A stretch of DNA of 64,000 bases, from NCBI GenBank assembly GCA_000004985.1, contig GG738894.1. One strand, given 5' to 3'. Below the pieces are notes generated by a model that worked only from the letters and a program-made list of their open reading frames with translations, had not been told where the DNA came from and ran no database searches. A program made the position numbers and the translations under genes. Below are positions 17,527 to 50,320 of the stretch, piece by piece; position 1 is the first letter of the stretch, and each line of letters begins with the position of its first letter. This stretch comes from Naegleria gruberi. Its lineage: Eukaryota.

Positions 17527-18660
17527 CTAATAGCTCTCTGATTTGTTGAACTTATTTGCTCCCCACAGTAGTGAATTCTCATGATTTAGTCCTTGATCAC
17601 CAATTCTATTGCCACGAATATTAAGTGATGTTAATTGTTTCATTTCACTTATATATTTGGCTCCTTCTACACCAATTCGATTGCCACGAATATTAAGTGA
17701 TGTTAATTGTTTCATTTCACTAATGAATTTGACTTTGCCACAAATATTAAGTGATGTTAATTGTTTCATTTCACTAATGAATTTAGCTCCTTCATCACCA
17801 GTTCTATTGTAAGAAATATTAAGTGATGTTAATTGTTTCATTTCACTAATGTATTTGACTCCTTCTATACCAATTTCATTTTCAGAAATATTAAGTGATG
17901 TTAATTGTTTCATTTCACTAATGAATTTAGCTCCTTCTATACCAATGAGAGTGTAATAAATATTAAGTGATGTCAATTGTTTCATTCCACTTATATATTT
18001 GGCTCCTTCATCGCCAATTATATTGTAAGAAATATCAAGTGATGTTAATTGTTTCATTTCACTTATATATTTGGCTCCTTCATCGCCAATTTCATTTTCA
18101 CGAATATTAAGTGATATTAATTGTTTCATTTCACTGATATATTTAGCTCCTTCATCACCAATTACATTGTAAGAAATATTAAGTGATGTTAATTGTTTCA
18201 TTTCACTGATATATTTGGCTCCTTCTACACCAATTCGATTGCCACGAATATTAAGTGATGTTAATTGTTTCATTTCAGTTACGAATTTGAGTTGTTCTAT
18301 GGCTTCCAGCAAATTTGTTGAAAATTTAACATCAACAATACTATTCATAAACTGACTTTTCATGAATAATTCAACTCGTTTCTCTGTAATGTTGTTTTTA
18401 AATTGAATAACAAGTTTTGAACGTTCCTTGATCACATTAAAGAATTGTTTTGAAATTAAAGTACAATTATTTAAAATAAACCACGAATCATCAATCATGC
18501 AAATTATTTCAAAACAAATATCATCTGAAAATATTTCTTGTTCGAGTTTCACATGCTTTTTTACTTTCTCTTCCATATTATTATTATTATTGTTAGTGAA
18601 TATTTCCTCCGAATTAATTAATTGATGATTTTCAAAATCTTGTCTGTTTCGTTTGCTCAT
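17527..18660 (-). CDS. Leucine-rich repeat protein (LRR_RI-type, 24-aa repeats GAKYISEMKQLTSLNISYNVIGDE)
   Basis: 377-aa ORF. About 10 tandem 72-nt repeats each encode one LRR. The N-terminus (DICFEIICMIDDSWFILNNCTLISKQFFNVIKERSKLVIQFK) is F-box-like. Paralog of 49469..50320. Confidence 0.8.
   Translation of the reverse strand: MSKRNRQDFENHQLINSEEIFTNNNNNNMEEKVKKHVKLEQEIFSDDICFEIICMIDDSWFILNNCTLISKQFFNVIKERSKLVIQFKNNITEKRVELFMKSQFMNSIVDVKFSTNLLEAIEQLKFVTEMKQLTSLNIRGNRIGVEGAKYISEMKQLTSLNISYNVIGDEGAKYISEMKQLISLNIRENEIGDEGAKYISEMKQLTSLDISYNIIGDEGAKYISGMKQLTSLNIYYTLIGIEGAKFISEMKQLTSLNISENEIGIEGVKYISEMKQLTSLNISYNRTGDEGAKFISEMKQLTSLNICGKVKFISEMKQLTSLNIRGNRIGVEGAKYISEMKQLTSLNIRGNRIGDQGLNHENSLLWGANKFNKSESY
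17590..18290. repeat. Tandem 72-bp coding repeats (LRR units) inside the LRR gene
   Basis: Recurring ...gttaattgtttcatttcact(a/g)at(a/g)(a/t)atttggctccttc... units are visible on the plus strand. This is protein-coding periodicity, not a CRISPR array. Confidence 0.7.
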
Positions 18661-18747
18661 TTTTTCTTGAGATTTAAATTCATGGGATTTACTTTGGTTA
18701 GAATTGTTGGCATTGTAATGTTAAATAACATTTTGAGAAAATGATAT

Positions 18748-20790
18748 CTACAATATTTCTCTTTGCATCATAATCAGTCCAAAAAGGACTTGATGCAGCA
18801 CTGATAGTTCAACTCGTTCTTGCAAACAGGTATCTCTGAATCGGATAGTCACAGTTGCATTCAATAAACTCTCTTCATCAATAGTGATGGCAATAGGAAT
18901 TCCAATTTCATCAGCACGTTTATATTTCTTTCCAATTGAGTGTGCACTTTCATCATGTTTGAAGGGAATGGAAAGAGTTCTTATAATTTTAGTAACCTTT
19001 TCTAGTACCATCTTTTCCTCATTAGTTTTGACTTTACAGTTAGAAACCAGTAATACCTTGATTGGAGCCAACTGACTTGGTAAAGAAAGAATAGGCCTTT
19101 CCTCATCTCGAGTCCAAAATACATGTTCCAATAAGCTCAATAATATTCTACTAACAGAAAATGAAAGATCAATGATGTGAGGAGTAATCTTTTCTCCATA
19201 AACTTTTTTCACACATTCCACAAACGAAATATCATCTTTGGATAATTGGAAATTCTTTCCATTGATATCAAGTGAGATTTTGTGGTTGGTTTCCAACTCT
19301 GTTTGATATTGAGATTTCTTCTCCTTAGATAGTCCACTAAGGTGCTCTAACAGTATTTTGGTATCATTCTTGTAACGTTTTCCAAGCTTTTGATGTGAAA
19401 ACTCCACAACTATTTCTCTCTCCTCAAGAGGTTCATCAAATGAATCAAATAGAGAGAGATCAGAGTTAGAATGTTGAGAATGTTGCAGCAAATCGTAACC
19501 TGCTTTGGATTGAACATTAACAACCTCTACCCAACCAATGGTTGTCAACACCTCACATGTCCACAACTGCTCCAATCTATATGAAAATTGTTTTCGAAAC
19601 CGTATTCCTTCACTCAAAAATCCACATTCCTCCATGAATTCTTGTGTTCTGGCAAGATAGTAAGCCAATGATTTGTTAGCTATGAATTCTTGTTCCGCAG
19701 CATCTTTGATCGAAATCTTGGTTTCTTCATCATTTGAATCTAAAAGCAATCTCACAATTACTTGCTCGACTTTCTTGGAGTACTTTTCACAATTATTTTT
19801 CTTTGCTCCATTGCAGAAATGCATTATTTTTGCGCTTGAATTTTCCCTCAGTTTCGAATAGTGGCCAGTAGTTGTAGAATTATCAAAAATGGACCCAACC
19901 TGTGCAACTGAAAAGGGTAACCGTTTTCCACCATATTCCCATAACCGCTTAATATTTGTGTAAACACCTTGATCGAGATCAGGTCTCAAATAAACACTTG
20001 TTCTACCTGTTACTCCAATTTGTGTTTTAATCGCAAACGTCCATTCAAATACTTCAGAAATTTGATTTCCATCCATACTCCTAATTCTAAACCTCTTAAT
20101 AATATTATTCATGGCACCACCATCATAAGAATGAAGATTTGCAAGAATTTCTCTGAAATGTTTGATTTGAACACTTGTTAATAAATCCTCGTTGCCCAGC
20201 TTTTCCTGTATGAAATCCTCAATAACTTTGGTGGCAAGAATGATCTTATCAGTCTTCATATCTTTCACAATAAATTCATTAAAAGGAAAAAAGAATCCAA
20301 AAGCTCTGTAAACTTCATCAAGTACAAGTGAGCTCGTTTCCATTTCCATCATTTCTTCCTCCAATACGAAATGTTTCCTCCATAATCCAATCACATTATT
20401 CTTCAAATTGCATCCCAAAGGACCTAAATCCACCAAACCACTCACTCCACCATAAATTTCGAATGACGGTAATACGAAACAATTTTTCAATAAACATGCC
20501 CTTAATAACTGATCATTGAAATGTAATTTACTCGATTCGGAACACTTCTTTGCAATTATTTTCAATTCCAAATTTAATAATTTAATTCTCTCCTCATCAC
20601 GATCGGAAGAAGAATTAAAATTTGATAATTGTTGTAATTTTTCTTTGAATAATTGATTAATAGCAATTCGTTCTTCTAATGTTGCAATTTTAGGTTGATT
20701 GTTGGTGGTAGTTGTCGAAGAAATTGCATTTTCCGTTGATGTGTTGTTGCCTATCTGATTGTTGATCATTTTTTTAATTTGTAATTTCAC
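18748..20790 (-). CDS. Glycyl-tRNA synthetase-like protein (class II, eukaryotic dimeric type) with substituted catalytic motifs
   Basis: 680-aa intronless ORF. FVLPSFEIYGGVSGLVDLGPLGCNLKNNVIGLWRKHF matches the GlyRS N-terminal catalytic core. YLRPDLDQGVYTNIKRLWEYGGKRLPFSVAQVGSIF matches [36 protein letters not shown]. The C-terminal anticodon-binding region (PIKVLLVSN...SIGKKYKRADEIGIPIAITIDEES) matches GlyRS. The motif-2 positions FRNEISPR...RVREF read FDNSTTTG...KLREN, and KTSGHVDKF reads RAFGFFFPF. Confidence 0.75.
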   Translation of the reverse strand: MKLQIKKMINNQIGNNTSTENAISSTTTTNNQPKIATLEERIAINQLFKEKLQQLSNFNSSSDRDEERIKLLNLELKIIAKKCSESSKLHFNDQLLRACLLKNCFVLPSFEIYGGVSGLVDLGPLGCNLKNNVIGLWRKHFVLEEEMMEMETSSLVLDEVYRAFGFFFPFNEFIVKDMKTDKIILATKVIEDFIQEKLGNEDLLTSVQIKHFREILANLHSYDGGAMNNIIKRFRIRSMDGNQISEVFEWTFAIKTQIGVTGRTSVYLRPDLDQGVYTNIKRLWEYGGKRLPFSVAQVGSIFDNSTTTGHYSKLRENSSAKIMHFCNGAKKNNCEKYSKKVEQVIVRLLLDSNDEETKISIKDAAEQEFIANKSLAYYLARTQEFMEECGFLSEGIRFRKQFSYRLEQLWTCEVLTTIGWVEVVNVQSKAGYDLLQHSQHSNSDLSLFDSFDEPLEEREIVVEFSHQKLGKRYKNDTKILLEHLSGLSKEKKSQYQTELETNHKISLDINGKNFQLSKDDISFVECVKKVYGEKITPHIIDLSFSVSRILLSLLEHVFWTRDEERPILSLPSQLAPIKVLLVSNCKVKTNEEKMVLEKVTKIIRTLSIPFKHDESAHSIGKKYKRADEIGIPIAITIDEESLLNATVTIRFRDTCLQERVELSVLHQVLFGLIMMQREIL

Positions 20791-21627
20791 AACAAGTCAT
20801 CATGAAACAATCAAATTTGTGAAACTATCAAGAAGACGCACTTTCTGTGCAATTTAATCCAACCACTCAGTTTGTTAATCCCAATGAGTGGAATAAAAGA
20901 TTCATAACAGCTAATACATTGGCATTATAATCCAAAATAGTTCCAATAGATAATGCATTAAGAGTAGCTTAATATTTCAATTAAAATGTTTACAAAAGTA
21001 TACCAGTATTCATAAAGTTGGAAATTACCAGGATTCACTCCTTTCCAGTATGGTAGCATTTCTGGAAAGTAGTTAGATATGGAACGATGAATTAAAATTA
21101 TTAATTATCAAGGTTTTCGAGTGCAACCATGGCTGGATCAAAACCATTAGAAATGAAAGTATTAGACTCTAAATAAGAGGAAGTTAGTGTTACTTTTTCT
21201 ACATGAATTACAAGCAGATTTTAACAATCACGTTCCGAAACTTAATTCCAAATTTTAGGATGCTAGGTAGATAACCTACCAACTCGTATTTCCATGCAAC
21301 TAATTATTATTAATTCGTGATGATGTGTTGACTTCAATATTTGCTGCGTTTACGAATTTGAATTTGAAAAAACCCTTTCAACTTCCAACTTGTCGCCTCA
21401 AATTTACCAAATTAATCAAAATTCACTATCAACACAAATGTTGTATGGAAGGAACTTTGTATGAAAGATCAAAGATAACTCTCTGTGCAATTATTAATAG
21501 CTACCTGATAGAGGAAGTCAGGGAATTCAAAAGGTGGATCGATGAAAACTTCGTCTTGTATTTTTTCAAGTAAAAAACAAATACAAAAGATCTTCATCAA
21601 TTAATTATATTATTAATAATCATCAAA

Positions 21628-23097
21628 ATGCCAGCCAATGTCGGAACTAGAAGAAAATTGAATCCAAATCTTAAGAAGGGATATGTAGCTCCACCAGTTG
21701 AAGATCATATCATCATTGAAGAGGATCAAAAGCAAAAATCACAACAACAACAACCTGTAAAAACAAAGAAGCAACAACAACCAATTGCTAATACTTCATC
21801 ACCAGCAACCACTACTACCACTAACAAGGTTGTTACCAATGCAAATGTACCAACAACAACAACAACAACAGCACCAAAAGCAAAGAATGTAAAATCATCA
21901 TCAGAATCACGTTTTGAAAAGTACGAAAAACAACATGAAGCCTTCATCAAGCAAATGGAAACATTCATGAAGTCCTTCCTTGATTTTGAAAAGGAGAGAT
22001 TGGCCTTCATGAAAGAACAATTCGGATCAAAGAGTGTTGGCACAACCACCACTACACAAACAACTGTGGCCAACAATAAGAAGGATAACAAGACAATTAC
22101 AGCCACAACAACAACTACACCAACAAAAACTACAACTCCTCCTCCAACTAACACAACTGTTAAAACAACAACAGCAACAGCAGCAACTACTACTCCTAAG
22201 AAAAAGACAACAGAACCAACCACAACTCCACAAAATAATACCAATGTAACATCACCAAAATCAACCAAGAATGAAGCAGCAAAGAATAAGGATCCTGCTG
22301 TTGATGCTTCTCCAACTAAGCAACAAACCAAGAAGGCAACAACTACTACTAGCCCTACCACTACTGCCACTACCACCACTACAACTGTACCAACAAAGAT
22401 TAGAGAATTGACTGTAACAAAAGATGAAATTTTTGATAATCTCAAAGTTGTCTATGTGAGTGGTGAAAACATCAAGGCAATTGCCGAGGCTAATAAGGTA
22501 TTCGATACTTTGGAAAAGAAGGATGCTGTATATGGATTTGACATTTTGTGGAATGCAAAGGAGGAAAAGACAATTAACGAAAGCCCAACCGAAACTCACA
22601 TCCTTGTACCAATCAGACTCATCTTATTGGCTAATCATGACACTGTCTTTGTTTATAGACCTCCAACTGCCGAAGAGATGCTTGCTGAAAAGATTGATAG
22701 ACCTCTCCCAGTAGCTCTTTACAAAATTCTCACTCAAAATCAATGTGTCAAGGTTTCATTTAATGCTATTGAAAAGGTCAACTACTTGTACCATAATTTG
22801 AACACTACCTATGTTAGTCATGTATCTGATATCAACTCCCTTTTCGTGAAGGAACCATATGGTTCTGCATTGGATATGTTAAGTAAGGAATTGGAATTAC
22901 CAACAGAACAAGTTTCCAAAGAGCTCAAAATGAGACATAATATTAATTATAGCAAGGAGCTCAGTAATGGCCAACTTGTCACAGTTGCCAAGAGATGTTG
23001 GTTGGAATTAAGACTTGTTGAAAAATTCTCTGAAAAACAAAAAACCAAGACAAATCTATTTGACTTTGTGACCAAAAACATGAAAATTGAAGATTAA
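21628..23097 (+). CDS. Thr/Gln-rich low-complexity protein with a C-terminal globular domain (weak 3'-5' exonuclease/DEDD-like resemblance)
   Basis: 489-aa ORF. The N-terminal two-thirds is poly-Thr/Pro/Lys/Gln (mucin-like). The C-terminus (VYGFDILWNAKEEK...IRLILLAN...) loosely resembles the GFDxEW / LIQL opening of WRN/RNase D-type exonuclease domains, but with the acidic residue replaced (E to L). This domain call is low confidence. Confidence 0.5.
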   Translation: MPANVGTRRKLNPNLKKGYVAPPVEDHIIIEEDQKQKSQQQQPVKTKKQQQPIANTSSPATTTTTNKVVTNANVPTTTTTTAPKAKNVKSSSESRFEKYEKQHEAFIKQMETFMKSFLDFEKERLAFMKEQFGSKSVGTTTTTQTTVANNKKDNKTITATTTTTPTKTTTPPPTNTTVKTTTATAATTTPKKKTTEPTTTPQNNTNVTSPKSTKNEAAKNKDPAVDASPTKQQTKKATTTTSPTTTATTTTTTVPTKIRELTVTKDEIFDNLKVVYVSGENIKAIAEANKVFDTLEKKDAVYGFDILWNAKEEKTINESPTETHILVPIRLILLANHDTVFVYRPPTAEEMLAEKIDRPLPVALYKILTQNQCVKVSFNAIEKVNYLYHNLNTTYVSHVSDINSLFVKEPYGSALDMLSKELELPTEQVSKELKMRHNINYSKELSNGQLVTVAKRCWLELRLVEKFSEKQKTKTNLFDFVTKNMKIED

Positions 23098-25499: not shown

Positions 25500-26654
25500 A
25501 TGCAATACGATTCAGAAGAATTCATTCCTCCAGCCATTTCAATAGATATTGGTTCGGGTAGGTTTAAATGTGGCTTCTCTGGAGAAGAGGCTCCACTCTT
25601 TGACATGCCAACCATTTGTGGTAGAACTGCAACATCACCAATGCATTACTACAACGGTCACAGGACTACTGGCTACCAGGCTAAACCAGATAAACCCGAT
25701 GATAAATTCTTTGGTGAGGAGGTTCTCTTGCAAAGGAGTTACTTGACAATGAATTATTTCATTGAGAATGGAGTTGTAGTGAATTGGGATAATTATGAAT
25801 ATGCAATGCATCACATGCTCTATAAGAAAATGAAAGTTGAACCAGAATGTCATCCAGTGATATTGAATAGCCTGCCTCATAATCCAAGGGCTGATAAGGA
25901 AAAAGCAACACAGATCATGTTTGAAACATTCAATATACCAGCCATTTATTTTGCAAATTCAGCACAAATGGCATTGTTTGCCTCGGGGAGAACTTTTGGA
26001 GTTTCATTATTGTGTGGTGATGGAGTTTCATTGGTAGCTCCATTCACAGATGATCTCCGTGCCAACGATGTTTATAGAATGAATTTTGGTGGAAGAGATT
26101 TGAATGATTACTTATTGAAATTGGTCATGTCGAGAGGAAAATGTTCATTGACAGAATTTATTGGAAGGGAAGTCATGAGGGAAATTAAGGAAAGTGGCTA
26201 TTTCACATGTGACACCTCTGAGAAGATAACGAAAAAGTATTTTACTTTACCTGATGGATCCAGGATTGTCATGGAGGAGGAATTATTGGAATGTACAGAA
26301 CCATTATTTAATGTTGAATTGATTTCATCGAGTTTTCAATTTTCTGGTTTGCACGAAATGTTAAATCATTCCATTTCTAACATGCCAATTGAATATAGAA
26401 AAGATCTTTATTCGAATATAGTTCTCTCAGGAGGAACAACACTTTTCAATGGATTTAAGAAGAGATTGGAAAGTGAAATGGATTCCATCTCAAAATCAAA
26501 ACTTTCCATTATTGCTCCTTCTCAAAGAAACCATTCCATTTGGTTAGGTCAATCAATCTATAGCTCCCTAGAATCATTTCAATCCATATGGAAAACAAAG
26601 GAAGAATATGATGAATCGGGTCCAGGTGTTGTGTCACGAAGGCCTTGTTGGTAA
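25500..26654 (+). CDS. Actin-related protein (divergent actin-family ATPase)
   Basis: 384-aa ORF with actin-fold signatures: ISIDIGSGRFKCGFSGEEAP (cf. actin VVDNGSGMCKAGFAGDDAP), ETFNIPAIYFANSAQMALFASGRTFGVSL, NIVLSGGTTLFNGFKKRLESEM, IIAPSQRNHSIWLGQSIYSSLESFQSIW. Confidence 0.75.
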   Translation: MQYDSEEFIPPAISIDIGSGRFKCGFSGEEAPLFDMPTICGRTATSPMHYYNGHRTTGYQAKPDKPDDKFFGEEVLLQRSYLTMNYFIENGVVVNWDNYEYAMHHMLYKKMKVEPECHPVILNSLPHNPRADKEKATQIMFETFNIPAIYFANSAQMALFASGRTFGVSLLCGDGVSLVAPFTDDLRANDVYRMNFGGRDLNDYLLKLVMSRGKCSLTEFIGREVMREIKESGYFTCDTSEKITKKYFTLPDGSRIVMEEELLECTEPLFNVELISSSFQFSGLHEMLNHSISNMPIEYRKDLYSNIVLSGGTTLFNGFKKRLESEMDSISKSKLSIIAPSQRNHSIWLGQSIYSSLESFQSIWKTKEEYDESGPGVVSRRPCW

Positions 26655-28036: not shown

Positions 28037-28382
28037 ATATTTTCACAAATTTCGTTTCGAACTATTTTCATTAGCTGTTTAAGGAAAATTTGAAAAATCA
28101 AGTAATTGATGTTGAGGAAACTTATTCCAACTACAAATTGAGTGATATTTCAATAAGGATAGTTGATTAAAAATTTAATTACCCTTTGATCTTATTTATT
28201 GTAAAAACATTACAATGAAGAGTTTCATTCTCCCAGAAGGGAAATATTGAAAAAATCTTTTTCCACTGACCACAGTATTGTTGTAATCAAGATCAGAGCG
28301 AACTCTAAAAGTCCATTGAATATATCGCCACCACCTTTCATCTTGTGAAAAATAATATCATCACAAAAAAACGAGTTTAGAG

Positions 28383-31300
28383 ATGGTTATTATTCGAAAG
28401 GTTTACTTGTCTAAACCTTGGTGGTTATTTGTGCTACTGTTTAGCTGCATCGTTTTCACAATACACAACAACAACCTTGTTCATTCTAAATCGCCTTCTC
28501 TATACATTCCACAAGTTTCGGATACAAGCCAGACTAATAACATTCCATCTTCTCTATCATCAACAAGTTCCACCTCATCGGATAAATGTAAAACAACTAA
28601 TCCCTTCATATTTTCCCTTCCTACACCATTCTTTCACTGGGCAGAATCGGATTTCAATAACATTGGTTCGAAAGCTTTTTATGAAAATAATTGTTTACAA
28701 ATTGAACAAGTAAATAGATATAATGGATATATTCCATATGATCAAGTCAAGAAATCTCTCACCACCACTTCGACAACATCTAATATTGCAGAATTTTTAA
28801 TCATTGACGATTATTCACTTTTCAAATTGTGGAAAGACAATATTACAAACTTCAAGCTCATTTCACAATTTGCCAAATCAACGAATCTAATTCTAATGTC
28901 CAAGAAGGAAAAACAAATTACATCGATGAGAGATTTGAAAAATAAGAAGGTTGCTGTTTGTCAACATCATTTGGAATATTTGATTTATGAATTATATAAA
29001 CTAGGAATGAGTTTGAGTGATATTAAATATGAGATTGTAAATTATGACCTCATGTATATGAGGGTTTTATATGAAGATATTGATGCATACTTTGTGGATG
29101 ATCGATACATTTTCACACAAGTGAGAAAGACAACTACAACTCTTTATTATCCTAGAGAGTTTAATATTATTGAATCATCACTCAATTATACAAAGGATGG
29201 AATCAACATGTTCAGATATGGTATTATTGTGAAAGATAATCCAAGTGTTAGTGGGCTTGAAGAAATTACAAGAAGATTCTTACTGACACAAACTCAAATG
29301 TACACCTTTTGTAGAGATAATCCTTTGGAGTGTTTTGAAAGATGGGTCGTCTATGATTACATGATTGATAATTTGAACAATTTATTGTGGCCTTCTATTG
29401 ATGGTTTTGGAAATATTAGTAGAGTTTCAATTACAAATTCAATGTCTATATATTTGGGAAGAAATCCAACTTCAACAGAATCAAAAATATTTATCAACCA
29501 GTTTGTCAATTCAACCATAATGGATGAGATTATTTCGAATTGTACTGATAATTTGTGTACAGGCATAGATGGATCTGTATTGAATATTACAGGACTTGCC
29601 TATTCAGATGCAACTCCAACATTTTGTGAGGATTACATATTCCCATATCCACTCTCTTGTAAGAGATATTACTTGTACTTTAGATTGTACTGCTCATTTG
29701 TTCCATTCCTTATTGGTTCCCTAATTAATTTGATATTTGCTGTCATTGTTCCATTCATGAGAAGTGAACACTTGATGAAGCATCGTTTCATAGCCCCATT
29801 TGTAACACCAGTTTGCTTTTCAGGATTTTTACTCTTCTCTGCTATATTATTTTGCAGGTTTTCCTATTTTCCTGAGAATGTCATTTACGGTTTGGCAAGT
29901 GCCTGTATCGTTACAGTTATTATTACACGTTCCATGAATGTGATTCGTTACTTTTATGTGAGAAATATGTTCAAGCTCATGAAAAAGAGGAATAAGAATG
30001 AAAATAATGGATCAGCATACAATTTCTCAATGAAAGAAGATAAGGAAGTATTGGATAGGAATATTCGGTTTCACAGAGTTGCAGCATCCAAATTGGTCTT
30101 TGTTATTATTTGGATAGTACTGGTAGTACTTATTGCTCCGTCATTTTTCATAGCTCAATACTATGCTCCGGAGAATTATATTATAAGAAATGGAATTTCC
30201 ATTATTGTCTATGTATTGGCAACATTTTTCATGGTTTTCCTCTTTATTTTTGATTTGATTGTTAATAGAAAGAGATTGAAAAAGAGAGGTTTCATTTCCT
30301 TCATTCTATTCGACGATCCACTATTGTACAGATTGGAATTATTATTGTGTGGGTTTGAATTGATTTCAATTGTTTGGATTTCTCTCAGTGATTACTATGT
30401 CTATAACATTGCTGCCTTCTCTGCACAAGCTGTTGGTTTCCTTTCTTTGGGCCTTTCTGGTGCTGTAACATGGTCTTATGGATTTGCAGCAGCTGTCATT
30501 CTCTATAGACGTGGCAAGAAGTTTATCATGTCCAAAGTTTATAGAAGAAGAGCAATGAAAAGTAATTCAAACCTCTCTACAGAATTGAGTGGAAGTGCAA
30601 TCCAAGCTGATTTCTTGGAAAAGTTAATTGAAAATGATGATTTTTATTCTCTTCTTGAAGGTATGTTATAGATTGAATAGTTACGAATTTAATGCTTGTA
30701 TAGATTATGCTAAGAAGGAATTCTCATCGGAAAATCTCTTCCTTTACAATGTAAGTTTTCATTAACTCAATCCTCATTTACATGTTCAATCTTTTTGGCA
30801 ATAGATACTGAGACAATATAGAAAAAGGAGAGAACTCTACATTTCGGATTTACTGTTCATTTACAATAATTATGTAAAGAATTATTCACCATTTGAAGTG
30901 AACGTCTCCTCTGAAACTAAGAAGAGCGTTAGAGAAATTCTCTACACTTACCATATGATTGAGTCAGCAACTTCTAAAGACAGATTCTCTAAAAGAATCA
31001 CCCAATTTCCAACAGATATTTTCCCAAATTATGATTCATTCTCGGGAGCTACTCCTTATCAGGCCTTTGATGATGTTCATTCATCGCCAAAACTTGCAAG
31101 TAAGGCGACCATGCCACCTTCATTTCAGAATAACAACTCTCCAATGATGGGTCGATTTAAAGATAGTTTCAGAAAGCTATCATCTGTTTCAGATAGTGAA
31201 GCAAGTAGGGGGGATGATCTTGTTGGAGATGACGCAGATATAGGATCAGATCAAAGCAGAACTCCTAGAAGAAGTACTGTAAGTGGAGGGGGACCAGTTA

Positions 31301-31449
31301 TTCCATTCAATCAAATTCAAGCACTTTACAATGATGTTACACAGAATGTTATGGATACTTTCAGTAGATTATGTGAAACGAGTGAATATCAGCAATGGGA
31401 ATCCCTTAATAATATGGCATTGTTCATCTCCAATAAGGAATTGGCTTGA
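28383..31449 (+). CDS. Solute-binding-protein-like ectodomain + multi-TM + C-terminal RGS domain receptor (3 exons)
   Basis: Exons 28383..30660, 30704..30750, 30805..31449; the two introns begin GTATGT and GTAAGT. N-terminal signal/TM segment. The ectodomain resembles bacterial SsuA/NMT1-type periplasmic binding proteins (RDLKNKKVAVCQHHLEYLIYELYKLGMSLSDIKYEIVNYD...DIDAYFVDD). At least 7 hydrophobic helices lie between ~29650 and 30480. The RGS hallmark spans the introns (DYAKKEFSSENLFLYN|ILRQYRK..., SPFEVNVSSETKKSVREI). Confidence 0.75.
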
Positions 31450-31587: not shown

Positions 31588-31660
31588 CGCCCCACGTGGG
31601 GCTCGAACCCACGACCGTTGGATTAAAAGTCCAACGCTCTACCGACTGAGCTAGCAGGGC
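31588..31660 (-). tRNA. tRNA-Lys (anticodon UUU)
   Basis: The reverse complement GCCCTGCTAGCTCAGTCGGTAGAGCGTTGGACTTTTAATCCAACGGTCGTGGGTTCGAGCCCCACGTGGGGCG folds as a cloverleaf. The acceptor stem has 7 bp including 2 G-U pairs. D-loop AGTCGGTA, anticodon loop CTTTTAA, T-arm GTGGGTTCGAGCCCCAC, discriminator G, 73 nt. It closely matches eukaryotic tRNA-Lys-UUU. Confidence 0.9.
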
Positions 31661-34085: not shown

Positions 34086-37000
34086 ATGCCTCAAAGTAGA
34101 ACAATTACACCAAATTTTCCCTCCATCAACATGTTCCTATTTCATCGAGAACCGTACTTTTTAGATTCGAGTGAGGATAAAAATCGTATTCAAATCAACA
34201 ACAAGAACAATAATAGGGATGATGGAGAAGCAAAAACAATATTAAGGATGAGAAGTTTGGATGAAACTGTGCGGGATGATGATACGCATTCTTCTTCAAT
34301 ACATCATCAAGAAGCCTTGGAACATGTTTTTGGTAAGACAAGAACATCTTCCGCTACAACGAGAACAGTATCACAAAATTCAAGGAATACTAATTATTTT
34401 AATGCTAATACAATAGCAAAAAGCGAGAATAACAACAACTACAAGAAAAACCTTATTAATCACCTGATAATATTATTATTAATTACACTCTTAGTTGTAC
34501 TTCCAACCTTTGTAGAGTGCCTACATCCATTCGCCACATACAATTGGAACAATGATGATGAGATTTGGTTTGCTCAGTCGGCACCATTTTCTGGCCCTAG
34601 TAGCACAATTGGGACAGGTAAGTAGTATCAACATGTAAATGTTCTATAGTGAGTACTTTAATTAGAATTGAGAAATGGAATATTAGCTGCTTTTAATGAA
34701 ATCAACTCTGTTGGAGGTATATTCGGAAAGAAGAAGCTGAGATTGATCAGTATGGACGATGGCTATGAACCACCCAATACAGTTCGCAACATTAATAATT
34801 TTCTGAATGGAAACAAGACAATATTTGGATTTATTGGAGTGGTAGGCTCACCCACTATTCTTGCAGCCTATGATTTGGTAGTGTCGTCTGGTCTTCCTCT
34901 GATTGGAAGTTACACAGGAGCTACATTTTTGAGACAGCCCTTTCATGCAAATTTTGTAAACATTAGACCATCATACTATGATGAAACAGCTGCAATTATG
35001 GATGTATTGATTGGAAAAAACATGGCGAGGAAAATATCAGTCCTTCATCAAGATGATCCTTTTGGAATTAATGGATATGAAGGAGTTAAACGTATACTTG
35101 ACCATATGGGAATTCCAATGTGTTCATCAGGAAGTTATCAAAGAAACACACTCAACGTTGAGGATGCATTCTACAAGATTGCAAAGTGTGATCCAGATGC
35201 TATTGTTGTAGTGGCACTGTATGCACCAGCAACAAAATTCATCAAAATGGTTACCAACTCGACCCTTTACCGAAAGGATATTTTATTTGCAGCAACCTCA
35301 ATAGCCAGCGATTTAATTGTAAAGGAGCTAGGCCCTGAAATTGCTCCAAGAGTTCTGTTTTCACAAGTTGCCCCTTCTCCAACAGATACATCCTCGACCC
35401 TTGTTAAATCTTTCATCACCGCAAGGAAATCAATAGATTCTAATTTTACACAAGGTACATTTATTGAAATAGAGGGATATATTGCTGGAAAAATGACGTA
35501 TCACTTGCTCCACAGAATAATTGGATACATGTCCCCCAGTAACATGCTGACTAATCTTTACTATTCACAAGAAGTTATGTTTGACAATTTGAAATTAGGA
35601 CCATTCTCTTCAGTGTCTGTCAAGGATCCTGTTTACCTTATTCAAACAAATTTTTCCACTCAATTTGATTGCAATCAAGGCTCAAAATCAGTTTGGAGGA
35701 CGAAAGCTGATTCTAACTTGAATTTCTATAATTATGCACCTCCATTTTCATGGTACACTTCTGGCACATGTATTTCAACCCCAGGCGATGTCATCAATCC
35801 AATTTTATTAGCACAACTTGTTTATAACAATCTAGGATCTTCTAATACCTATCTCACTAACGGAATTAAAGCCGCCTTATCCACTGCATATGTCCAGGGA
35901 AGACCTATACATCTACTAACTCGCACTTACTCAGATTTCCAATCTCTTATTTCCACCACTCAAGATCTCGTTGAAAACTACTATATTACTGCATTGGTTG
36001 GATCTTCTGGATTGGGAGAAGTTATTAGTTTAAATACTTCCTCTATTGATCTATTCAGAGAGATATTTAAAACATCCTTCCCACATATTCCTCTGATTGG
36101 AAGTGTAGTTGACAATCCGTCAATCATGTCAACAACTGGTTCGTTGTTTATCCCATCCATGGTAAACATTAGAAGTACAATCATTGAGGAAATTGGAACT
36201 TTGCTTCAACATGCATTCAAAAGAGGAGTTACCAGAATATCAATAGTGAACTGTCCTGCATACGTCCATATCAACAAAATTTTCAAACTTTTAATGTCAA
36301 AATTGCAACTAACAATTGAGAGTGAGCATGGATGCTCAGATACCATTCTTTTCGATAGCATCTCGATAAACCCACAAGTGGTTCTAGTAGCATGTGCATC
36401 TGCCATTCTCCCTGGAACTCTTTTAAAGTTGGATGCAAGTAGTAATCTTAGACAAGATGCATTGTTTTTTGTTTTGGAAGAGAAGAAAAAGCTAGTCTTG
36501 TCAAGCCTTGAGAGTGGACCTAAAGGTGTACAAAGACCTATCTTATATAGTTCTTCATTCCCAGATCCAAAAATCTCGGCCGTAACCATTGTTTCAAGAT
36601 TTAAATCAACTACACCGCCTCTAACAGATCTTTCTGGGTATTATTCTTCTGATTTGGCTCTTGAAGGATATTTTATTGGAGAGTTTGTTGGATCAATATT
36701 GGGATCAGTTGCAGATTCAGCACCCTCAATAACAGGTCAGGCAATTATTGACTTTATATACAAAAGTCAACAGATAGTGGTGAGAGACCAAAAGTATGGA
36801 TACTTTATTAGAGACAAGAAAAATTCATTGTGCAATATTGGGTCGAGAACAAGATTTCTATTCCAGATAAGAAATTGTTCAACCTCAATACTATCAACAA
36901 CAGGTTTCCAACAACAATCATGTTGTTTACAATCTGTTTTAGAGGATTCCAGTACCCTCAACTTTAGAAGACCAATGCAGTTCGTTAGATTCAAACCAGG

Positions 37001-39125
37001 AGACACTGAACAACTTACCATCGAAGCAATAGATGATTTTGCAAAAGGAGTAATATCTTTCATTAATGATATTAATACCATGGGGAAATATTCATTTGCC
37101 TTTCAATTTCTTACTCAAACTTTTAATGGATCTTCTGATATTCAAATGTTAGCTAACGATTTAACCTCTAAACAGCAAATATTTGGTGTTATCGCTCCAG
37201 ATGTAGATTATGACATTGAAATGTTTACGAACATTAGTTTACCAATTATCGGCCCCAAAACTGCTAACATGCAATACAGAAATTACAAAAAAAATGTAAT
37301 TAACATCTACCCTTCCTTAATAGATGAAATCTTCAATTTGGTTGAATTTTTCCTAAAATTTAGTGACGCAATTACTATTGTTTATGAGTCCTTGGATGTT
37401 AATAATTATGCTCAACCCCAGGTATTGAAAACTATCCAAAATATAATAACTAACAGACAACTTTCAAGAGTTTCCCTCACTTGTATGACTTGTGTCAGTG
37501 ATCAAGCAGGGTCAGTAATAATTATGGCAGAAACAGAAGAAATCATTCAGTTTATTAGAGCAAATCAGAAGATAATGAACAGAGTTGGTTTGATTTCAGA
37601 AGCATATGAAGAGCATGATGATCTTAAAGAGTTGTTGTCCCTTCATTCGAATGTTTACATGTCCACTATAGTATCCCTCACAACAGAAATGACGGGATTT
37701 GTGGAATCTGAATTCACAAAGCATTTTCAAGTTTCGTTTCCAAACGACGTGCCAACAATAGAGTCTATAGATGGTTTCGTTTCCTTTTTGTTTGTTGAAA
37801 AAGTATTTGAGTCATTCTTAGATAGAATACAACCAAGACAACAACAGGCTTTCATTGACAAGATATATAGTCTCTCTGTTTTAGATATTGGTGACATTAC
37901 TCTTGGAAAGTTCACCAATACCTGCAATCAAGGAACAAGAAGATTGTACGTTAGCAGATTTTCCCTTAGTAACACAAGTGAAGTCATAACAGTCACAGAA
38001 CCAAACAGTCTTTTCACAATTTCAACATGTGGGTATAACTTCCCTTCCCCTGCAGTCATGGATTATCTTTATTATATTCTAATTTCTATATTGGCTATAA
38101 TTTTTTTGATTGTAGCCATGGGAATATCAGGTTTATTAATTTACAGACAGTATAAGGCTAAAAAGTCACACCTTCATGCTCCAAAAGGAGGAGTCATTTC
38201 TTTTGCGTTTACTGATATTCAAAATTCTACTGTATTGTGGCAATACAATGAGAAAGCAATGAAATTAGCTCTTGCTATACATAACAAGATAGTTAGGGAT
38301 AATATTAAGAAATACAGAGGTTACGAAGTCAAAACTCAAGGGGATTCATTCTTTGTTGCTTTTAGAAAGATAGAAGATTGTATTAATTGGGCATTCTCTG
38401 TTCAAAGTGATTTATTGAAAGCAAATTGGCCATCTGATATTATTACACAGTATGATTGTAGACCAGAATTTGAGGAAGGAACAAAAGTTTTGATTTATTC
38501 TGGTTTGAGGGTAAGAATGGGGCTTCATTGTGGTCAAGCTGAATATATTTTTGATAAGACTGTGAAAAGACCAGATTACTTTGGCAACACCATTAACCAG
38601 ACTGCCAGAATTCAAGCTCTTGCAAGAGGAGGAGAAATATTATGTAGTGAGGCCATGTTACAAGAAAGCAAATATTTATTTAAAATTTCTGGCCCAAGTT
38701 TCGAGGAGGAATTGTCGCATCAATCCTTAAACATACCAAGAAGAAGCTCTGAATCCACATTGTCAAAGAAGCGTAGATCAGTTGTTCCTGGATCCAATCC
38801 AATCTATACAGCCGAAGATTTTGGATATTGCTCCCTAAAAGGTATTAAGGAGGAAGTCAGAGTCTTTACACTTAAAAATAATGATATGAAACTTAGAGTT
38901 TTTCCACCTATTGGAAGATACAAAAATATTGAGGAAACATCGAACAATACCTTGCGATCGATTGCTTCCGTTCCAACATTTGAAACATCAAGTATCAATG
39001 GAGATGATATCATTGTGCACATTCCTGATCAAGCATCAGACAACCAAAAGAGCAAACCTGAACGGTTGAACACTCAAGCGATTGAACTTCCAGAGATTAT
39101 GATTTCTGGTGTAGATAATAAATAA
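34086..39125 (+). CDS. Receptor-type adenylate/guanylate cyclase (periplasmic-binding-protein type-1 ectodomain, single TM, class III cyclase domain; 2 exons)
   Basis: Exons 34086..34617 and 34666..39125, with a 48-nt GTAAGT...AG intron. Exon 1 encodes the signal/TM segment LIILLLITLLVVLPTF and the start of an ANF-receptor/LIVBP domain, which continues in exon 2 (GILAAFNEINSVGGIFGKKKLRLISMDDGYEP...GFIGVVGSPTILAAYDLVVSSGLPLIGSYTGA). TM helix MDYLYYILISILAIIFLIVAMGISGLLIY. The cyclase catalytic core includes ISFAFTDIQNSTVLW, YEVKTQGDSFFVAF, VRMGLHCGQAEY and FGNTINQTARIQALARGGEILCS. Confidence 0.85.
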
Positions 39126-45610: not shown

Positions 45611-46623
45611 TTACAAAACCAAAGCAAATAATGCAACGATAACCATAATTAAGGAAACAAGATGCATACTCAATACATTTGCGCTATTAACTCTTGTATC
45701 GAAAGTGGTATATGTTTGTACATAATCCAAATAACTTGTAACATTTGTATAGATACCTCTATTTGAAACCGATCCTGCAGTTCCACATCCGTTAGGTCCA
45801 AAACTAACAATACCAAAAACAATATAATCATTTGTAGAATTAGGAGCTTTGTAAAATAATGGCCCTCCAGAATCACCTTGACAGCTAGTTATCATTAATT
45901 AATTATTGGAATTAATATTTTCAACTTAAATAATGAGGAATAAATACACCTACCTGTCATGTCCTTTTCCATCGCCAGCACAGATTTGTTTTGGTGATGA
46001 AGCATCCAAGTTAATAGCATTACATTTACTCATATCAACCACAGGTACAGTAACTTTCATCAAATCTGTTGGAAGTGGTTGAGTATCAACAGTTGTTCCC
46101 CATCCAGCAACAATAGATGAGAAACCAATAGGAATTGATCCAATTTCCAAATAGGCAGCCTTAGCTGTTTTACCGTCCAATGTCATTGCTGATTCCAATT
46201 CAAGAATAGCTATATCATTTACAACATTATTATTTGAATCACTATATTGAGGATGGACATGAATGTTCTTTATCTTAATATATTTACGTTGTACATCACT
46301 CACAGAATTTCCACCATATACAGCAATCCAAGGTAATGTATCAGGGGGACTGAAACAATGGGCAGCTGAGAGTAAATATTTGGAATTTATAATTGAAGCT
46401 CCACAAGTGTGACTGTAGCTTTTGGCGCTGATATCATCAGCCTGTTGGAGTGAGACAATGAATGGAAATTCGTTGGTGCTTGCCTTTTCACCATTGGACA
46501 CTTTAGAATCTCTCACTTTAAGTTGTTGAGCAGTTGATAATTTAGATATTAAGGCAACAATACTCAACAGAAGGAGGGCAAGAGTCCTCTTCCTTCCACT
46601 GTTACTACTTCCTCCGATCAACA
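45611..46623 (-). CDS. Trypsin-like serine protease (S1 family), secreted (2 exons)
   Basis: Exons (minus) 45954..46623 (first in-frame ATG of the ORF is 46759; the signal-peptide Met [32 protein letters not shown] is at ~46623) and 45611..45884. The 69-nt intron runs GTAGGT...CTAG on the minus strand. Catalytic triad present: [24 protein letters not shown], with CAGDGKGHD|SCQGDSGGP across the intron. Confidence 0.8.
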
Positions 46624-46793
46624 TTGTGTGAATTTTTATTGTTGTTGAAATAATTAAATTGGAAGTGTGAAGGACAAAACCAATCCAAAGATTACTGTGG
46701 AAGAGGAAATAGAGCGTTCTTTTAGGAGATAATTTGATCATTCTTTTATTATATTTCACAACTATATTGAAGGAACATCATGTGATGACCCAC

Positions 46794-49100
46794 TTAAAAG
46801 TCATATAATTCATTTTCCTTTTGAAGTTCTGTGAGTTTGAGCCACTTTTTGTACTCTGCTGTTTCCTCAAGTCTAGAAAAGGTATCAGATACATTCTTAA
46901 TGACTTCAAAGATGAGGATTTCTCTCAATTCAGAGTAAGGGATTGAGTTTGCAGTTGGTGTTTGCTCACAAACTTGTTTCTTCTCTTCAAACCATTTGTA
47001 AAATGCCTTTTTAGTAGAGTTTGGAAAATTGACCTCAAACTTGGAATAATTTCTCATATAGAGCTCTTCAATTTGGGCAGCCTGTTCGAAAGTTAAGAAT
47101 GAATCTGCAGAATTGACGAGGGAACTTGAACTAAATGTTCGTGAGGTTCTTGAATTGGATGTAGGCAATGAGTCAGTAGATGCTCCCATACTTGATTTCG
47201 ATCTATCATTACCTGAAGATGGGCTTTTCTTATTCTCCAATGATATTAACATTTCATATAACATTACATTTTCAATTGAAAATTCCTTCTTTGCAAACTT
47301 TCTCAATAATTTCATCAAATTCACATCTTCCAATCTGGATTCCAATGTTCTCTTTCCTTTTGGTTCATTGCCTCTGTTTGAAGAAAGTAATTTACTTATT
47401 TTTCTATAAATTTCAATAATCATTGCACTTCCACCAAGAATTAAATAACAAGTCAATGAAAATAGAACTGTCAATACTCCAATGGCAAATTGATTATTAT
47501 ACACTAACAGGGTGATAATTGTGAGTACGAGGAGTAAAAATATGAGTAACAAGTCTATCTTGATATAGAACGGATCATCAAAGAAAAAGTAGTAGTATAT
47601 TCCTTTCTTTTTGATCTTTCTTCGATTTCCAATCATATCCAATAGCAAGAATATTAAACCAATTACAATACATAGAATAATGACAGCACCAAGAGGTGCA
47701 TTTCTGAAATATCCCAAATAGGAAGTAAGGTAAACTTCTTTTTCTAGTATCATGAGAACCGAAGCTCCAAGAGGAATAAAAGGTACTGTTACACTTGTAA
47801 CTAATCCTAACCACTTCTTTCCCAAAAACTTGAAAAATTTGAAATGATCAGATTTTGAAATTATTGTAAACAAATTTCTCAGATAGAAATATCTCACAAC
47901 TGTTATAAAATACAGGAATACAGGATACATTACAACTGCATTGGCTATTCCATTATACAATCGAGTGCAATTGGCAGTAAATACCATAATCTGGAAAATG
48001 TTTCGCATAATAACAAAGAGTGGGCAAAGGTATGGAACAGCCAATCTAATTTTGATGGATTTAGTATTAAATGTCAATAACAGACCAATATAGTAGATAC
48101 ATAGAAAAAAAATTGCATAAACACCTTGGATTTCTTCATATTTAACAGGTTCAAAGGCACAGGTGGAGGATGAACATTCATATACTTCACTGTTCATGTA
48201 AGAAAGGGTGATATTGGAGATTCCAATACTTGAAATTGTTTCGTTTGTATACAATGTGATTTGAGGGTAACTGCTTTGAAGATATTTCACAAAATTATTA
48301 AATTCGAAACTAGAATTTGATAGAGAAATTTTTGATGACCTAAACAGACAATAATCGTGATTCAAATAACATGAAGTACGGTAAGAATCCCCTTTCACTT
48401 CTTCTCTGCACAATCTAATTAATGAATCACATGTTGTAGTGAAGTTGTTAAAATAATCAGTGACACATGAGATTTGGTTTTGATCTAGACTGTTGGAATA
48501 TGAAAAGAACAATGGTGCCAATCTCACAACATTTAAATCTTCAACCTGTAGGTATCTACCTAGCTTGTTATTTCCTCTAATCAACCTCAAAACCTTTGGC
48601 ATTTCTCTGTCAGTTGTTATGATAATTGGACCTTCATTTGATGACCAATAATCAACAAGAATACTTCCAAACACGCAATCAGAGTTGATTCTAACAGCTG
48701 AAAGAATGGAAATAGGTTTGATATCAGCATATGCAGAAGTTGAAATATTATAAATTTCTAATAATGTGTTAAAGGAACTTTCTAATATTTTCAATCGTTG
48801 GTCGGAAACTGAGTAAAAATCAGAATTTGGAGTAAATAGAATGATTCTCTTGTTTTCAAATAGTGATCTTGGTGTAGTAGTTGAATAACCTTTAAGAGCT
48901 ATTGCAATAATAGTTTCATTGGACGAAACTATCTGAATTGGTTGTTGACCATAAATTTCCTTCAATTGACCAATACTCGCTGTCTTTAACCCACAACTAC
49001 AAATCACACAGTGTAGTTGAACTAAACACAACACCAATGAAATCGTAAAGCTGATGTGCATGTTTTTTTGACTTTTCGTTTGGCAAATCTCACATGTCAC
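46794..49100 (-). CDS. Solute-binding-protein-like ectodomain + multi-TM + C-terminal RGS domain receptor (paralog of 28383..31449)
   Basis: 768-aa single-exon ORF. Signal peptide (MHISFTISLVLCLVQLHCVIC), SBP-like ectodomain, a block of ~7 hydrophobic helices, then an RGS domain (FAKKEFSIENVMLYEML...NYSKFEVNFPNSTKKAFYKWF...IFEVIKNVSDTFSRLEETAEYKKWL). Confidence 0.75.
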   Translation of the reverse strand: MTCEICQTKSQKNMHISFTISLVLCLVQLHCVICSCGLKTASIGQLKEIYGQQPIQIVSSNETIIAIALKGYSTTTPRSLFENKRIILFTPNSDFYSVSDQRLKILESSFNTLLEIYNISTSAYADIKPISILSAVRINSDCVFGSILVDYWSSNEGPIIITTDREMPKVLRLIRGNNKLGRYLQVEDLNVVRLAPLFFSYSNSLDQNQISCVTDYFNNFTTTCDSLIRLCREEVKGDSYRTSCYLNHDYCLFRSSKISLSNSSFEFNNFVKYLQSSYPQITLYTNETISSIGISNITLSYMNSEVYECSSSTCAFEPVKYEEIQGVYAIFFLCIYYIGLLLTFNTKSIKIRLAVPYLCPLFVIMRNIFQIMVFTANCTRLYNGIANAVVMYPVFLYFITVVRYFYLRNLFTIISKSDHFKFFKFLGKKWLGLVTSVTVPFIPLGASVLMILEKEVYLTSYLGYFRNAPLGAVIILCIVIGLIFLLLDMIGNRRKIKKKGIYYYFFFDDPFYIKIDLLLIFLLLVLTIITLLVYNNQFAIGVLTVLFSLTCYLILGGSAMIIEIYRKISKLLSSNRGNEPKGKRTLESRLEDVNLMKLLRKFAKKEFSIENVMLYEMLISLENKKSPSSGNDRSKSSMGASTDSLPTSNSRTSRTFSSSSLVNSADSFLTFEQAAQIEELYMRNYSKFEVNFPNSTKKAFYKWFEEKKQVCEQTPTANSIPYSELREILIFEVIKNVSDTFSRLEETAEYKKWLKLTELQKENELYDF

Positions 49101-49371
49101 GTTTCATTGGTAAACATCTTTAAAGGAAACTTTGGTTAAGCTCATGCGTTCATTGCAATTAAATCTCAAGTAAACGGTTCTAGAATCGAGTTGCAAGAAT
49201 ATTCATTTCAAGAAATGAGAAGATTTTAATCTATCCATTGAATGGATGGTTTTATGCCTTCTGCATACGAAGGAATAGGAAGTGATTTTGAACTTGCAAT
49301 TGTTCTCGAATTTTATTCTAAACAATTTCCTGAAACATTCATCAATAGTGTGTTTTCTAAATGAATGTAAT

Positions 49372-49426
49372 GGGGTGTAGCTCACATGGTAGAGCACTTC
49401 TTTAGCATGGAATCCACACATGAGCC
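49372..49426 (+). pseudogene. tRNA-Ala(AGC)-like 5' fragment (degenerate, no intact acceptor/T arms)
   Basis: GGGGTGTAGCTCACATGGTAGAGCACTTCTTTAGCATGG matches the 5' half of eukaryotic tRNA-Ala (acceptor 5' strand, D arm, TTAGCAT anticodon loop). The downstream sequence (AATCCACACATGAGCC) cannot form a T arm or pair with the acceptor strand. Confidence 0.35.
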
Positions 49427-49468
49427 AAAGTCGGAAGAAAAAGAGTAAAAAACACTAATTTAAAAAAA

Positions 49469-50320
49469 ATGAGTAAACTTAACAGACAAGATTTTGAAAA
49501 TCATCAATTCATTAATTCGGAGGAAATATTCACTAACAATAATAATAATAATAATATAGAAGAGAAAGTAAAAAAGCATGTAAAACTCGAACAAGAAATA
49601 TTTTCAGATGATATTTGTTTTGAAATAATTTCAATGATTGATGATTCGTGGTTTATTTTAAATAATTGTACTTTAATTTCAAAACAATTCTTTAATGTGA
49701 TCAAGGAACGTTCAAAACTTGTTATTCAATTTAAAAAAAAATTTACAGAGAAACGAGTTGAAATATTAAAGAAAAGTCAATTTATGAATAGTATTGTTAA
49801 TCTTAAATTTTCAACAAATTTGTTTGACTATTTTGAAGAAGCAAAATTTATAAGTGAAATGAAAGAATTAACATCGCTTAATATTAATGGCAATGTAATT
49901 GGTGCAGAAGGAGCAAAATTCATCAGTGGAATGAAACAATTGACATCACTTAATATTTCTTACAATGTAATTGGTGATAAAGGAGCTAAATTGATAAGTG
50001 AAATGAAACAGTTAATATCAATTAATATTTCTTACAATAGAATTTGTGGTGAAGGAGCTAAATTCATAAGTGAAATGAAACAATTGACATCACTTAATAT
50101 TGCTAACAATTCAATTGGCGATACAGGAGCTAAATTCATCAGTGGAATGAAAGAATTAACATCACTTGATATATATAATAATAGAATTGGCAGAGAAGGA
50201 GCAAAATACATTAGTGAAATGAAACAATTGACATCACTTGATATTGGTGGCAATCAAATTGGTGATGAAGAAGTAAAATTGATAAGTGAAATGAAACAAT
50301 TGACATCACTAAGAAAATAA
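49469..50320 (+). CDS. Leucine-rich repeat protein, paralog of 17527..18660
   Basis: 283-aa ORF. The first ~120 codons are ~90% identical in nucleotide sequence to the 5' end of the minus-strand LRR gene (MSKLNRQDFENHQFINSEEIFTNNNNNN...DICFEIISMIDDSWFILNNCTLISKQFFNVIKERSKLVIQFK). The same 24-aa LRR units follow (GAKFISEMKQLTSLNI...). Confidence 0.75.
   Translation: MSKLNRQDFENHQFINSEEIFTNNNNNNNIEEKVKKHVKLEQEIFSDDICFEIISMIDDSWFILNNCTLISKQFFNVIKERSKLVIQFKKKFTEKRVEILKKSQFMNSIVNLKFSTNLFDYFEEAKFISEMKELTSLNINGNVIGAEGAKFISGMKQLTSLNISYNVIGDKGAKLISEMKQLISINISYNRICGEGAKFISEMKQLTSLNIANNSIGDTGAKFISGMKELTSLDIYNNRIGREGAKYISEMKQLTSLDIGGNQIGDEEVKLISEMKQLTSLRK

Follow-up and report, generated by a model that had tools for sequence, protein, structure and literature searches.

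Duplication, unequal crossing-over and gene conversion shape the lineage-specific, expanded recognition families of F-box or leucine-rich repeat (LRR) proteins, such as the F-box families of plants and nematodes and the NBS-LRR clusters. In this study, two LRR genes were analysed which lie in opposite orientation on a 64,000-nt stretch of DNA from Naegleria gruberi strain NEG-M (GenBank assembly GCA_000004985.1, contig GG738894.1; the whole stretch is referred to as the window). The locus is situated on a scaffold of 499,907 bp and represents a gene-dense segment of a eukaryotic chromosome. The two genes are designated as A (minus strand) and B (plus strand), and their positions are given in Table 1. 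The inverted pair is real but ordinary, in that both genes are new representatives of a kind of gene family which is already known, and both apparently lack an annotation. We consider it probable that A and B are intact paralogues of a family which is dispersed in N. gruberi, and that their 5' module was kept or made more alike, most likely by conversion together with selection. Both encoded proteins are best described as having an FBXL-like adaptor architecture, in which an F-box-like head is combined with GALA-like LRRs of 24 residues.

FBXL-type F-box/LRR proteins, among them Skp2, FBXL2 and FBXL17, are the substrate receptors of SKP1-cullin-F-box (SCF) ubiquitin ligases (PMC7729025). In these receptors, an N-terminal three-helix module is directly followed by an LRR solenoid, and both elements are predicted in the same order for A and B. 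However, the heads of A and B lie below every Pfam threshold; at the position of the canonical L-P they possess F-S, and the canonical W is an F. Furthermore, the repeats comprise 24 residues, in contrast to the 26 residues of the CC-LRRs, the proteins are only 283-377 aa long and end abruptly, and binding to SKP1 is only putative in this case.

The GALA (RipG) proteins consist of an F-box and tandem LRRs of 24 residues with the motif N-x-I-G-x-x-G-A (PMC2244805), and the repeats of A and B also show this 24-residue pattern. In GALA proteins, the variability is concentrated at surface positions (PMC2244805), as it is in the LRRs of A and B. Nevertheless, the helix of the A and B repeats reads GAK-x-ISEMKQL and not G-A-x-A-L-A, so that the units are GALA-like at most. 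In addition, A and B are genes of a host amoeba and do not represent secreted bacterial effectors. With the expanded families mentioned above, the family of A and B has in common many young paralogues, a conserved scaffold with a variable surface, internal duplication of repeats and a heterogeneous divergence. In contrast to those families, the close subfamily is small (eight known members in NEG-M including A and B), its members are dispersed and not arranged in tandem clusters, and conversion is here a candidate process.

Extent of the inverted similarity

The repeat search and the self-BLASTN of the window revealed only one dominant inverted pair, the arms of which align over 847 nt with an identity of 87.4% (E = 0). 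The original prediction had put the identity of A and B at about 90-93% over the first ~400 nt; at the coordinates given there, which are correct, a value of ~91% was obtained. In a global alignment including the flanks, the first four blocks of 100 columns, counted from just before the ATG, contain 92, 97, 94 and 81 matches. After these ~400 nt, the alignment runs on at 79-89% through the LRRs to the last codons of B. Over the initial ~336 nt of coding sequence, the identity amounts to 94.6%, and the longest perfect runs comprise 104, 49 and 43 nt, the first of which lies in this part. The common start MSK(R/L)NRQDFENHQ(L/F)INSEEIFTNNNNNN, which had been described before, was seen in both proteins.

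It had likewise been claimed that the identity starts at the ATG and that the upstream regions differ, and this was confirmed apart from a few nucleotides. The similarity sets in at an A-run 5 nt upstream of the ATG (AAAAAATGAG), and the flanks beyond it are unrelated. For the upstream flanks (300-450 nt), Smith-Waterman alignments were no better than those of shuffled sequences, and the best match of 16 nt was equalled in 4 of 300 shuffles. For the downstream flanks (400 nt), the Smith-Waterman score was even below the mean of the shuffles. Neither terminal inverted repeats nor target-site duplications were found around either copy.

The similarity of the LRR parts has to be regarded differently from that of the 5' ends. 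In a matrix of all 72-nt units, units of A and B in register were identical at a fraction of 0.82, compared to 0.80 (standard deviation 0.04) for units out of register, and unit 2 alone stands out (0.92). Since beyond unit 2 the units in register are hardly more similar than those out of register, the specifically collinear part consists of the N-terminal module and LRR units 1 and 2 (about 500 nt). In the self-alignment, the collinear identity of the 5' ends is therefore real, and the later likeness is the generic one of LRRs.

Two minor elements were observed upstream of the genes. A stretch 50-95 nt upstream of gene B (GGGGTGTAGCTCACATGGTAGAGCACTTCTTTAGCATGGAATCC) looks like a tRNA-Ala(AGC) of which only the 5' two-thirds are present, with an acceptor, a D arm and an anticodon arm but no T arm. 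ARAGORN made no call for it, nor did an Rfam scan of the region upstream of B, so that it probably represents a tRNA pseudogene in truncated form or a tRNA fragment. The second element is the exact 12-mer TTAAATCTCAAG, which occurs just twice in the window, once between -6 and -17 of A and once 299 nt ahead of B, in each case on the strand of the gene. As residual upstream homology it was rejected, because the local alignment covers only the 16 nt mentioned above. The 12-mer may have arisen by chance; alternatively, it may be what is left of a 5' homology that was interrupted by an insertion of ~290 nt containing the tRNA-like fragment.

F-box-like head, LRR arrays and the dispersed gene family

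Both proteins consist of a disordered N-terminus of ~40 residues, a divergent three-helix domain resembling an F-box, a short linker and an LRR solenoid. The stretch which precedes the repeats (...EIFSDDICFEIISMIDDSWFILNNCTLISKQFFNVIKERSKL...) is conserved in many N. gruberi proteins, and 10 of 20 aligned N-termini of the family matched the Pfam F-box or F-box-like domain (best E = 7.5e-7). When the PDB was searched with a profile of the family, only three matches were obtained, FBXO42, FBXO44 and FBXL2, and all of them were located at the position of the F-box. The AlphaFold2 model of B (mean predicted local distance difference test score, pLDDT, of 85; predicted template modelling score 0.79) showed residues 1-40 as disordered and the three helices, then a short linker of helix and strand and finally an LRR solenoid of regular shape, for which the pLDDT was above 90. 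In a Foldseek comparison of this model with the PDB, generic LRR proteins (LegL1, NLRP3, RanGAP and ribonuclease inhibitor) were found beside the F-box/LRR proteins FBXL17 (template modelling score 0.68), FBXL2-SKP1 and Skp2, with 257-289 aligned columns. The LRR domain of the GALA effector RipG4 (29% identity) occupied rank 2. It is likely that A and B belong to the F-box family, and the analogy with FBXL proteins makes a role as substrate-recognition adaptors of SCF ligases the most probable one.

The LRR arrays were recognised by Pfam LRR_6 with E-values of 1.2e-45 (A) and 4.4e-28 (B), and LRR_8 and LRR_4 also gave strong matches. The repeat unit comprises 24 residues, corresponding to a period of 72 nt, with the consensus AK(Y/F)ISEMKQLTSLNIxxNxIGxEG. 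Duplication within the array is evident in A, where units 9 and 10 are an internal duplicate of units 1 and 2 (91.5% identity over 153 nt) and unit 4 matches unit 2 at 94%. Gene A terminates in a decayed and frame-shifted unit. In B, the homology ends in the middle of a unit, 8 nt ahead of a stop codon which is supplied by unrelated sequence; by this sequence feature, B looks like a 3'-truncated copy. At the scaffold positions of the LRRs, A and B differ with nonsynonymous and synonymous substitution rates (dN and dS) of 0.056 and 0.29, respectively. At six surface positions, values of 0.60 (dN) and 0.45 (dS) were obtained, but these positions had been picked by their variability, so that the contrast between surface and scaffold is descriptive only.

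In a search with the full-length proteins, the top 120 matches included no fewer than 20 named proteins of N. gruberi. At least six annotated proteins of this species, which are encoded on five other scaffolds, share the N-terminus of A and B, namely P0001 and P0004 (695,587 bp), P0002 (395,411 bp), P0003 (536,960 bp), P0005 (160,583 bp) and P0007 (326,815 bp). The MSKRNRQDFENHQ-type start is kept by P0001 to P0005 and is not found in P0007. Over the first 120 residues, A and B are 87.5% identical, A and P0002 85.1%, and B and P0002 86.7%; the other members of the family show 63-80%. In a neighbour-joining tree, A and B are grouped with a bootstrap value of 72%, and P0002 is an almost equidistant third member, so that the three form a near-trichotomy.

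The head module appears to be restricted in its distribution. An exhaustive HMMER scan of 1.84 billion representative sequences detected it in only 19 clusters (E ≤ 1e-3), and all named matches whose source was seen belong to N. gruberi. Nine new matches were looked up, which turned out to be one further N. gruberi protein and eight environmental sequences. A word-indexed search with the N-terminus alone detected P0002 only. The exact proteins A and B are absent from a collection of 15 billion sequences, in which the products of neighbouring genes are present exactly; the best matches to A are paralogues with 73-83% identity. From this it appears that both open reading frames (ORFs) are unannotated in the public gene set of NEG-M. 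Literature searches did not reveal a paper which describes this family of Naegleria.

Several bacterial LRR proteins (P0042, P0043, P0054, P0055 and P0092) match the LRR array of Naegleria with E-values from 1e-24 to 1e-40. They originate from Ralstonia (GALA), Pandoraea, Legionellaceae and Solimicrobium. LRRs of 24 residues are common to amoebae and to bacteria associated with amoebae or plants, and the bacterial matches are consistent with this.

Divergence along the genes and origin of the pair

For A and B, which were compared as DNA, dS and dN were calculated according to Nei and Gojobori; the other paralogues were included as proteins only. Codons 1-112 (94.6% nt identity; dS 0.116; dN 0.044) are clearly less diverged than the LRRs in register (83.3%; dS 0.344; dN 0.154). 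The F-box-like part (codons 41-85) shows 98.5% identity with a dS of 0.04 and a dN of 0.009, and codons 86-125 show 82.5% with a dS of 0.255 and a dN of 0.188. Synonymous differences were found at 6 of 56 sites in codons 1-112 versus 30 of 102 sites in the rest of the gene (Fisher p = 0.009). If the 101 differences were evenly spread, a perfect run of 104 nt would have a probability of P = 5e-5. For the whole gene, the ratio of dN to dS (omega) amounts to 0.43 and is below 1 at p = 1e-4, which indicates purifying selection on at least one copy. With P0002 as a third taxon, the branch lengths of A, B and P0002 are similar, and the truncated copy B exhibits no accelerated decay.

Other causes of the 104-nt run were considered and rejected. 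These were an RNA structure, for which the fold z-score was +0.96, and antisense coding, for which the longest antisense ORF comprises 66 codons with a TTG start.

A and B contain a tract of raised identity which includes synonymous sites and is bordered by more diverged homologous sequence, as is expected of gene conversion. On the basis of the two sequences, this 5' homogeneity is compatible with what ectopic conversion of the 5' module would produce. The original prediction had proposed a recent duplication or gene conversion limited to the coding region. The confinement to the coding sequence and the low dS at the 5' end fit this proposal; the idea of a private local pair could not be maintained, as P0002 is equally close.

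The course of events that we favour is as follows. Copies of the gene body, and not of a chromosome segment, would have landed in two unrelated intergenic sites, and because of this the similarity is inverted and limited to the coding part. B would have arisen as a 3'-truncated copy. The 5' module would have stayed, or would have been made, more alike than the LRRs, and the likeliest cause of this would be ectopic conversion among members of the family together with purifying selection on the head. The LRR arrays would evolve by duplication of units and by changes at surface positions. At the protein level, SKP1 of an SCF ubiquitin ligase would be the docking partner of the conserved head, and targets would be bound by the variable LRR surface. 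The opposite orientation and the spacing of 31 kb would be incidental.

Some observations weigh against this explanation. The heads of A and B themselves gave no Pfam F-box match at E ≤ 1, and the E-values of the matches in the PDB profile search (0.5-5.6) are not significant, so that the assignment as F-box is based on the relatives and on the predicted fold. With regard to conversion, only few synonymous differences were available (6 in the 5' module), and the dS of the LRRs may be inflated by mis-registration of the units. Two DNA sequences do not suffice to tell conversion apart from the combination of a younger age with constraint. The bootstrap pairing of A and B and their common string VKKHVKL leave room for a direct parent-daughter relation within this scaffold. 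Finally, A and B are apparently missing from the public gene set.

Of the other explanations, a fairly recent simple copy of the coding segment, from A to B or to both of them from a third copy, deserves most attention, even if we regard it as rather unlikely. The segment would have been copied by fragment duplication or retroposition without later conversion, and the gap in divergence between the 5' and 3' parts would reflect a stronger constraint on the head and a scrambled register of the LRRs. The boundaries of the similarity, 5 nt before the ATG and within an LRR 8 nt before the stop codon of B, indeed resemble those of a copied fragment, and A and B are the best-supported pair in the tree. 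Since the units beyond unit 2 are not clearly in register, the dS of 0.34 for the LRRs may be overestimated, and the dS values of codons 1-85 and 86-125 do not differ significantly (p = 0.45). However, synonymous sites are also depleted of differences in the head (1 of 24 in codons 41-85 versus 26 of 94 in the LRRs; p = 0.014), and neither a poly(A) trace nor a target-site duplication was found at the copies. At a dS of ~0.12, flanks which had been copied together with the gene should be recognisable, and none are. The equal closeness of P0002, which is located on another scaffold, also speaks against a simple copy.

Recurrent inversions by non-allelic homologous recombination typically involve long repeats with more than 95% identity. 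A and B resemble such low-copy repeats insofar as their inverted arms bracket ~31 kb, but the arms are short (0.85 kb) and have diverged by 13%. If they were a working substrate for recombination, a crossover in the inverted 5' regions would flip the block of 30.8 kb and exchange promoters and heads between both LRR arrays, and both orientations would occur in populations. The geometry is suitable: the inverted arms face each other with their 5' ends, and after a crossover within the head (95% identity, with the 104-nt run) both ORFs would remain in frame, with their LRR arrays exchanged. With ~330 nt at 95% within 847 nt at 87%, and a longest perfect run of 104 nt, the substrate is nevertheless weak. 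A recombinase domain was not found among the ORFs of the block, and chance placement of family members explains orientation and spacing more simply; for these reasons, inversion at this locus appears very improbable. An origin of the whole locus from a multi-gene segmental duplication, with the LRR, trypsin and seven-transmembrane (7TM) pairs as its remnants, had been suggested because each of these three gene types occurs twice, on opposite strands. This suggestion did not hold, and we attribute hardly any probability to it. The flanks of A and B are unrelated, the order of the genes is neither mirrored nor collinear, and the self-BLASTN of the window detected no nucleotide similarity within the trypsin or the 7TM pair, nor any nucleotide repeat longer than 81 nt besides A and B. 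The trypsin-domain proteins share 38% of their amino acids, and the 7TM proteins 21% over 144 aa (45% over 40 aa). Both 7TM proteins possess multiple hydrophobic segments and, by eye, a C-terminal motif resembling a regulator of G protein signalling (RGS) domain, but Pfam did not detect RGS in either protein at E ≤ 5. These pairs are old paralogues with a divergence very unlike that of the LRR pair, and since the divergence of the three pairs is so enormously different, no single event can have produced them. An artefact of the assembly, such as a misjoin induced by repeats or a collapsed repeat, might come to mind, as LRR repeats are hard to assemble and the window opens with a run of 9,860 N (positions 1-9860, either padding or a scaffold gap, with true sequence from 9861 onwards). 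Between this run and A lie 7.6 kb, though; A and B diverge at 13% of the positions and possess different numbers of units, their flanks are unique and both ORFs are intact, so that the probability of an artefact is practically negligible.

Beyond the dispersed family with a homogenised 5' module, a more far-reaching idea is conceivable, although we consider it improbable. The family might constitute a young repertoire of SCF-type adaptors restricted to Naegleria, in which conversion keeps the heads uniform and the LRR surfaces diversify, similar to innate recognition and possibly in opposition to the F-box/LRR effectors of bacteria which infect amoebae. Inverted members would occasionally recombine, and thereby swap arrays and flip the block between them. 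If conversion of the head proved true genome-wide, the family would be a tidy example from a protist for the combination of a conserved docking module with a diversifying recognition module. In that case, the family could plausibly also have served as a reservoir from which amoeba-associated bacteria drew their F-box/LRR effectors. In practical terms, little is gained: two intact ORFs are apparently missing from the public set, and the family can be described by an F-box-like domain in combination with 24-residue LRRs. For the scanning of genomes, the locus teaches that near-identity of distant genes which is limited to the coding part here signals a dispersed young family and not a rearranging segment.

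Neighbouring genes

The remaining window has a G+C content of ~34% and contains long ORFs. The block between A and B comprises genes for a glycyl-tRNA synthetase (GlyRS)-like protein, a methyltransferase, an actin-like protein, a 7TM protein, a tRNA-Lys, an adenylate cyclase, a patatin, a protein similar to periplasmic binding proteins, a trypsin and a second 7TM protein.

Table 1. Positions of the features in the window (position 1 is the first nucleotide of the 64,000-nt stretch)
Feature	Position	Strand	Remarks
LRR gene A	17527-18660	-	intact ORF, 377 aa
LRR gene B	49469-50320	+	intact ORF, 283 aa
Left arm of inverted repeat	17822-18665		repeat search and self-BLASTN
Right arm of inverted repeat	49464-50310		repeat search and self-BLASTN
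High-identity 5' core of A	18325-18665	-	codons 1-112 and 5 nt upstream
High-identity 5' core of B	49464-49807	+	codons 1-113 and 5 nt upstream
104-nt perfect run, copy A	18395-18498	-	spans the F-box-like helices
104-nt perfect run, copy B	49634-49737	+
F-box-like three-helix domain of A	18415-18534	-	residues ~43-82; by alignment to the model of B
F-box-like three-helix domain of B	49598-49717	+	residues ~44-83; helices 47-55, 60-69, 72-81
LRR array of A	17590-18291	-	10 units of 24 aa, unit 8 shortened
LRR array of B	49841-50311	+	6.5 units
12-mer upstream of A	18666-18677	-
12-mer upstream of B	49159-49170	+
tRNA-Ala-like fragment	49373-49420	+
Intervening block	18666-49463		30.8 kb, unrelated genes; composition as in the flanks
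GlyRS-like ORF	18748-20790	-	100% match to N. gruberi 'predicted protein' P0128, 499,907-bp scaffold
Actin-like ORF	25500-26654	+	exact match to NEG-M EFC40143.1, 499,907-bp scaffold
7TM protein	28356-30668	+	probable second exon at 30805-31446
tRNA-Lys(UUU)	31588-31660	-
Adenylate/guanylate cyclase	34668-39125	+	large, receptor-type, with periplasmic-binding-protein domains
Trypsin-domain ORF	45953-46777	-
7TM protein	46797-49103	-
Elongation factor 2 (EF2) ORF	50372-52936	-	exact match to NEG-M EFC40215.1, 499,907-bp scaffold
673-aa protein	54763-56784	+	canonical Pfam F-box at residues 316-361, without LRR
81-nt direct repeat, first copy	57502-57578
369-aa ORF	57661-58770	-
81-nt direct repeat, second copy	58885-58965
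Trypsin-domain ORF	60539-61315	+

The EF2 gene next to B is a multi-copy, near-identical housekeeping gene. N. gruberi possesses four full-length copies, which differ at just 4-6 of 854 residues, and two of them (EFC40215 and EFC40138) are located on this scaffold. The copy listed in Table 1 directly adjoins gene B, with 51 nt between the stop codons of the two genes.

In the GlyRS-like protein, the Pfam match is limited to the anticodon-binding domain, and the class II catalytic core was undetected by Pfam. The protein has no Naegleria orthologue in the protein database, and the next best matches are fungal GlyRS with ~33% identity. It represents a divergent paralogue of GlyRS, which is possibly non-catalytic.

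A direct repeat of 81 nt, the copies of which are 89% identical, is located on both sides of the 369-aa ORF, which itself gave no Pfam match. A regulatory region may have been duplicated here, or the repeat may have been left behind by an insertion.

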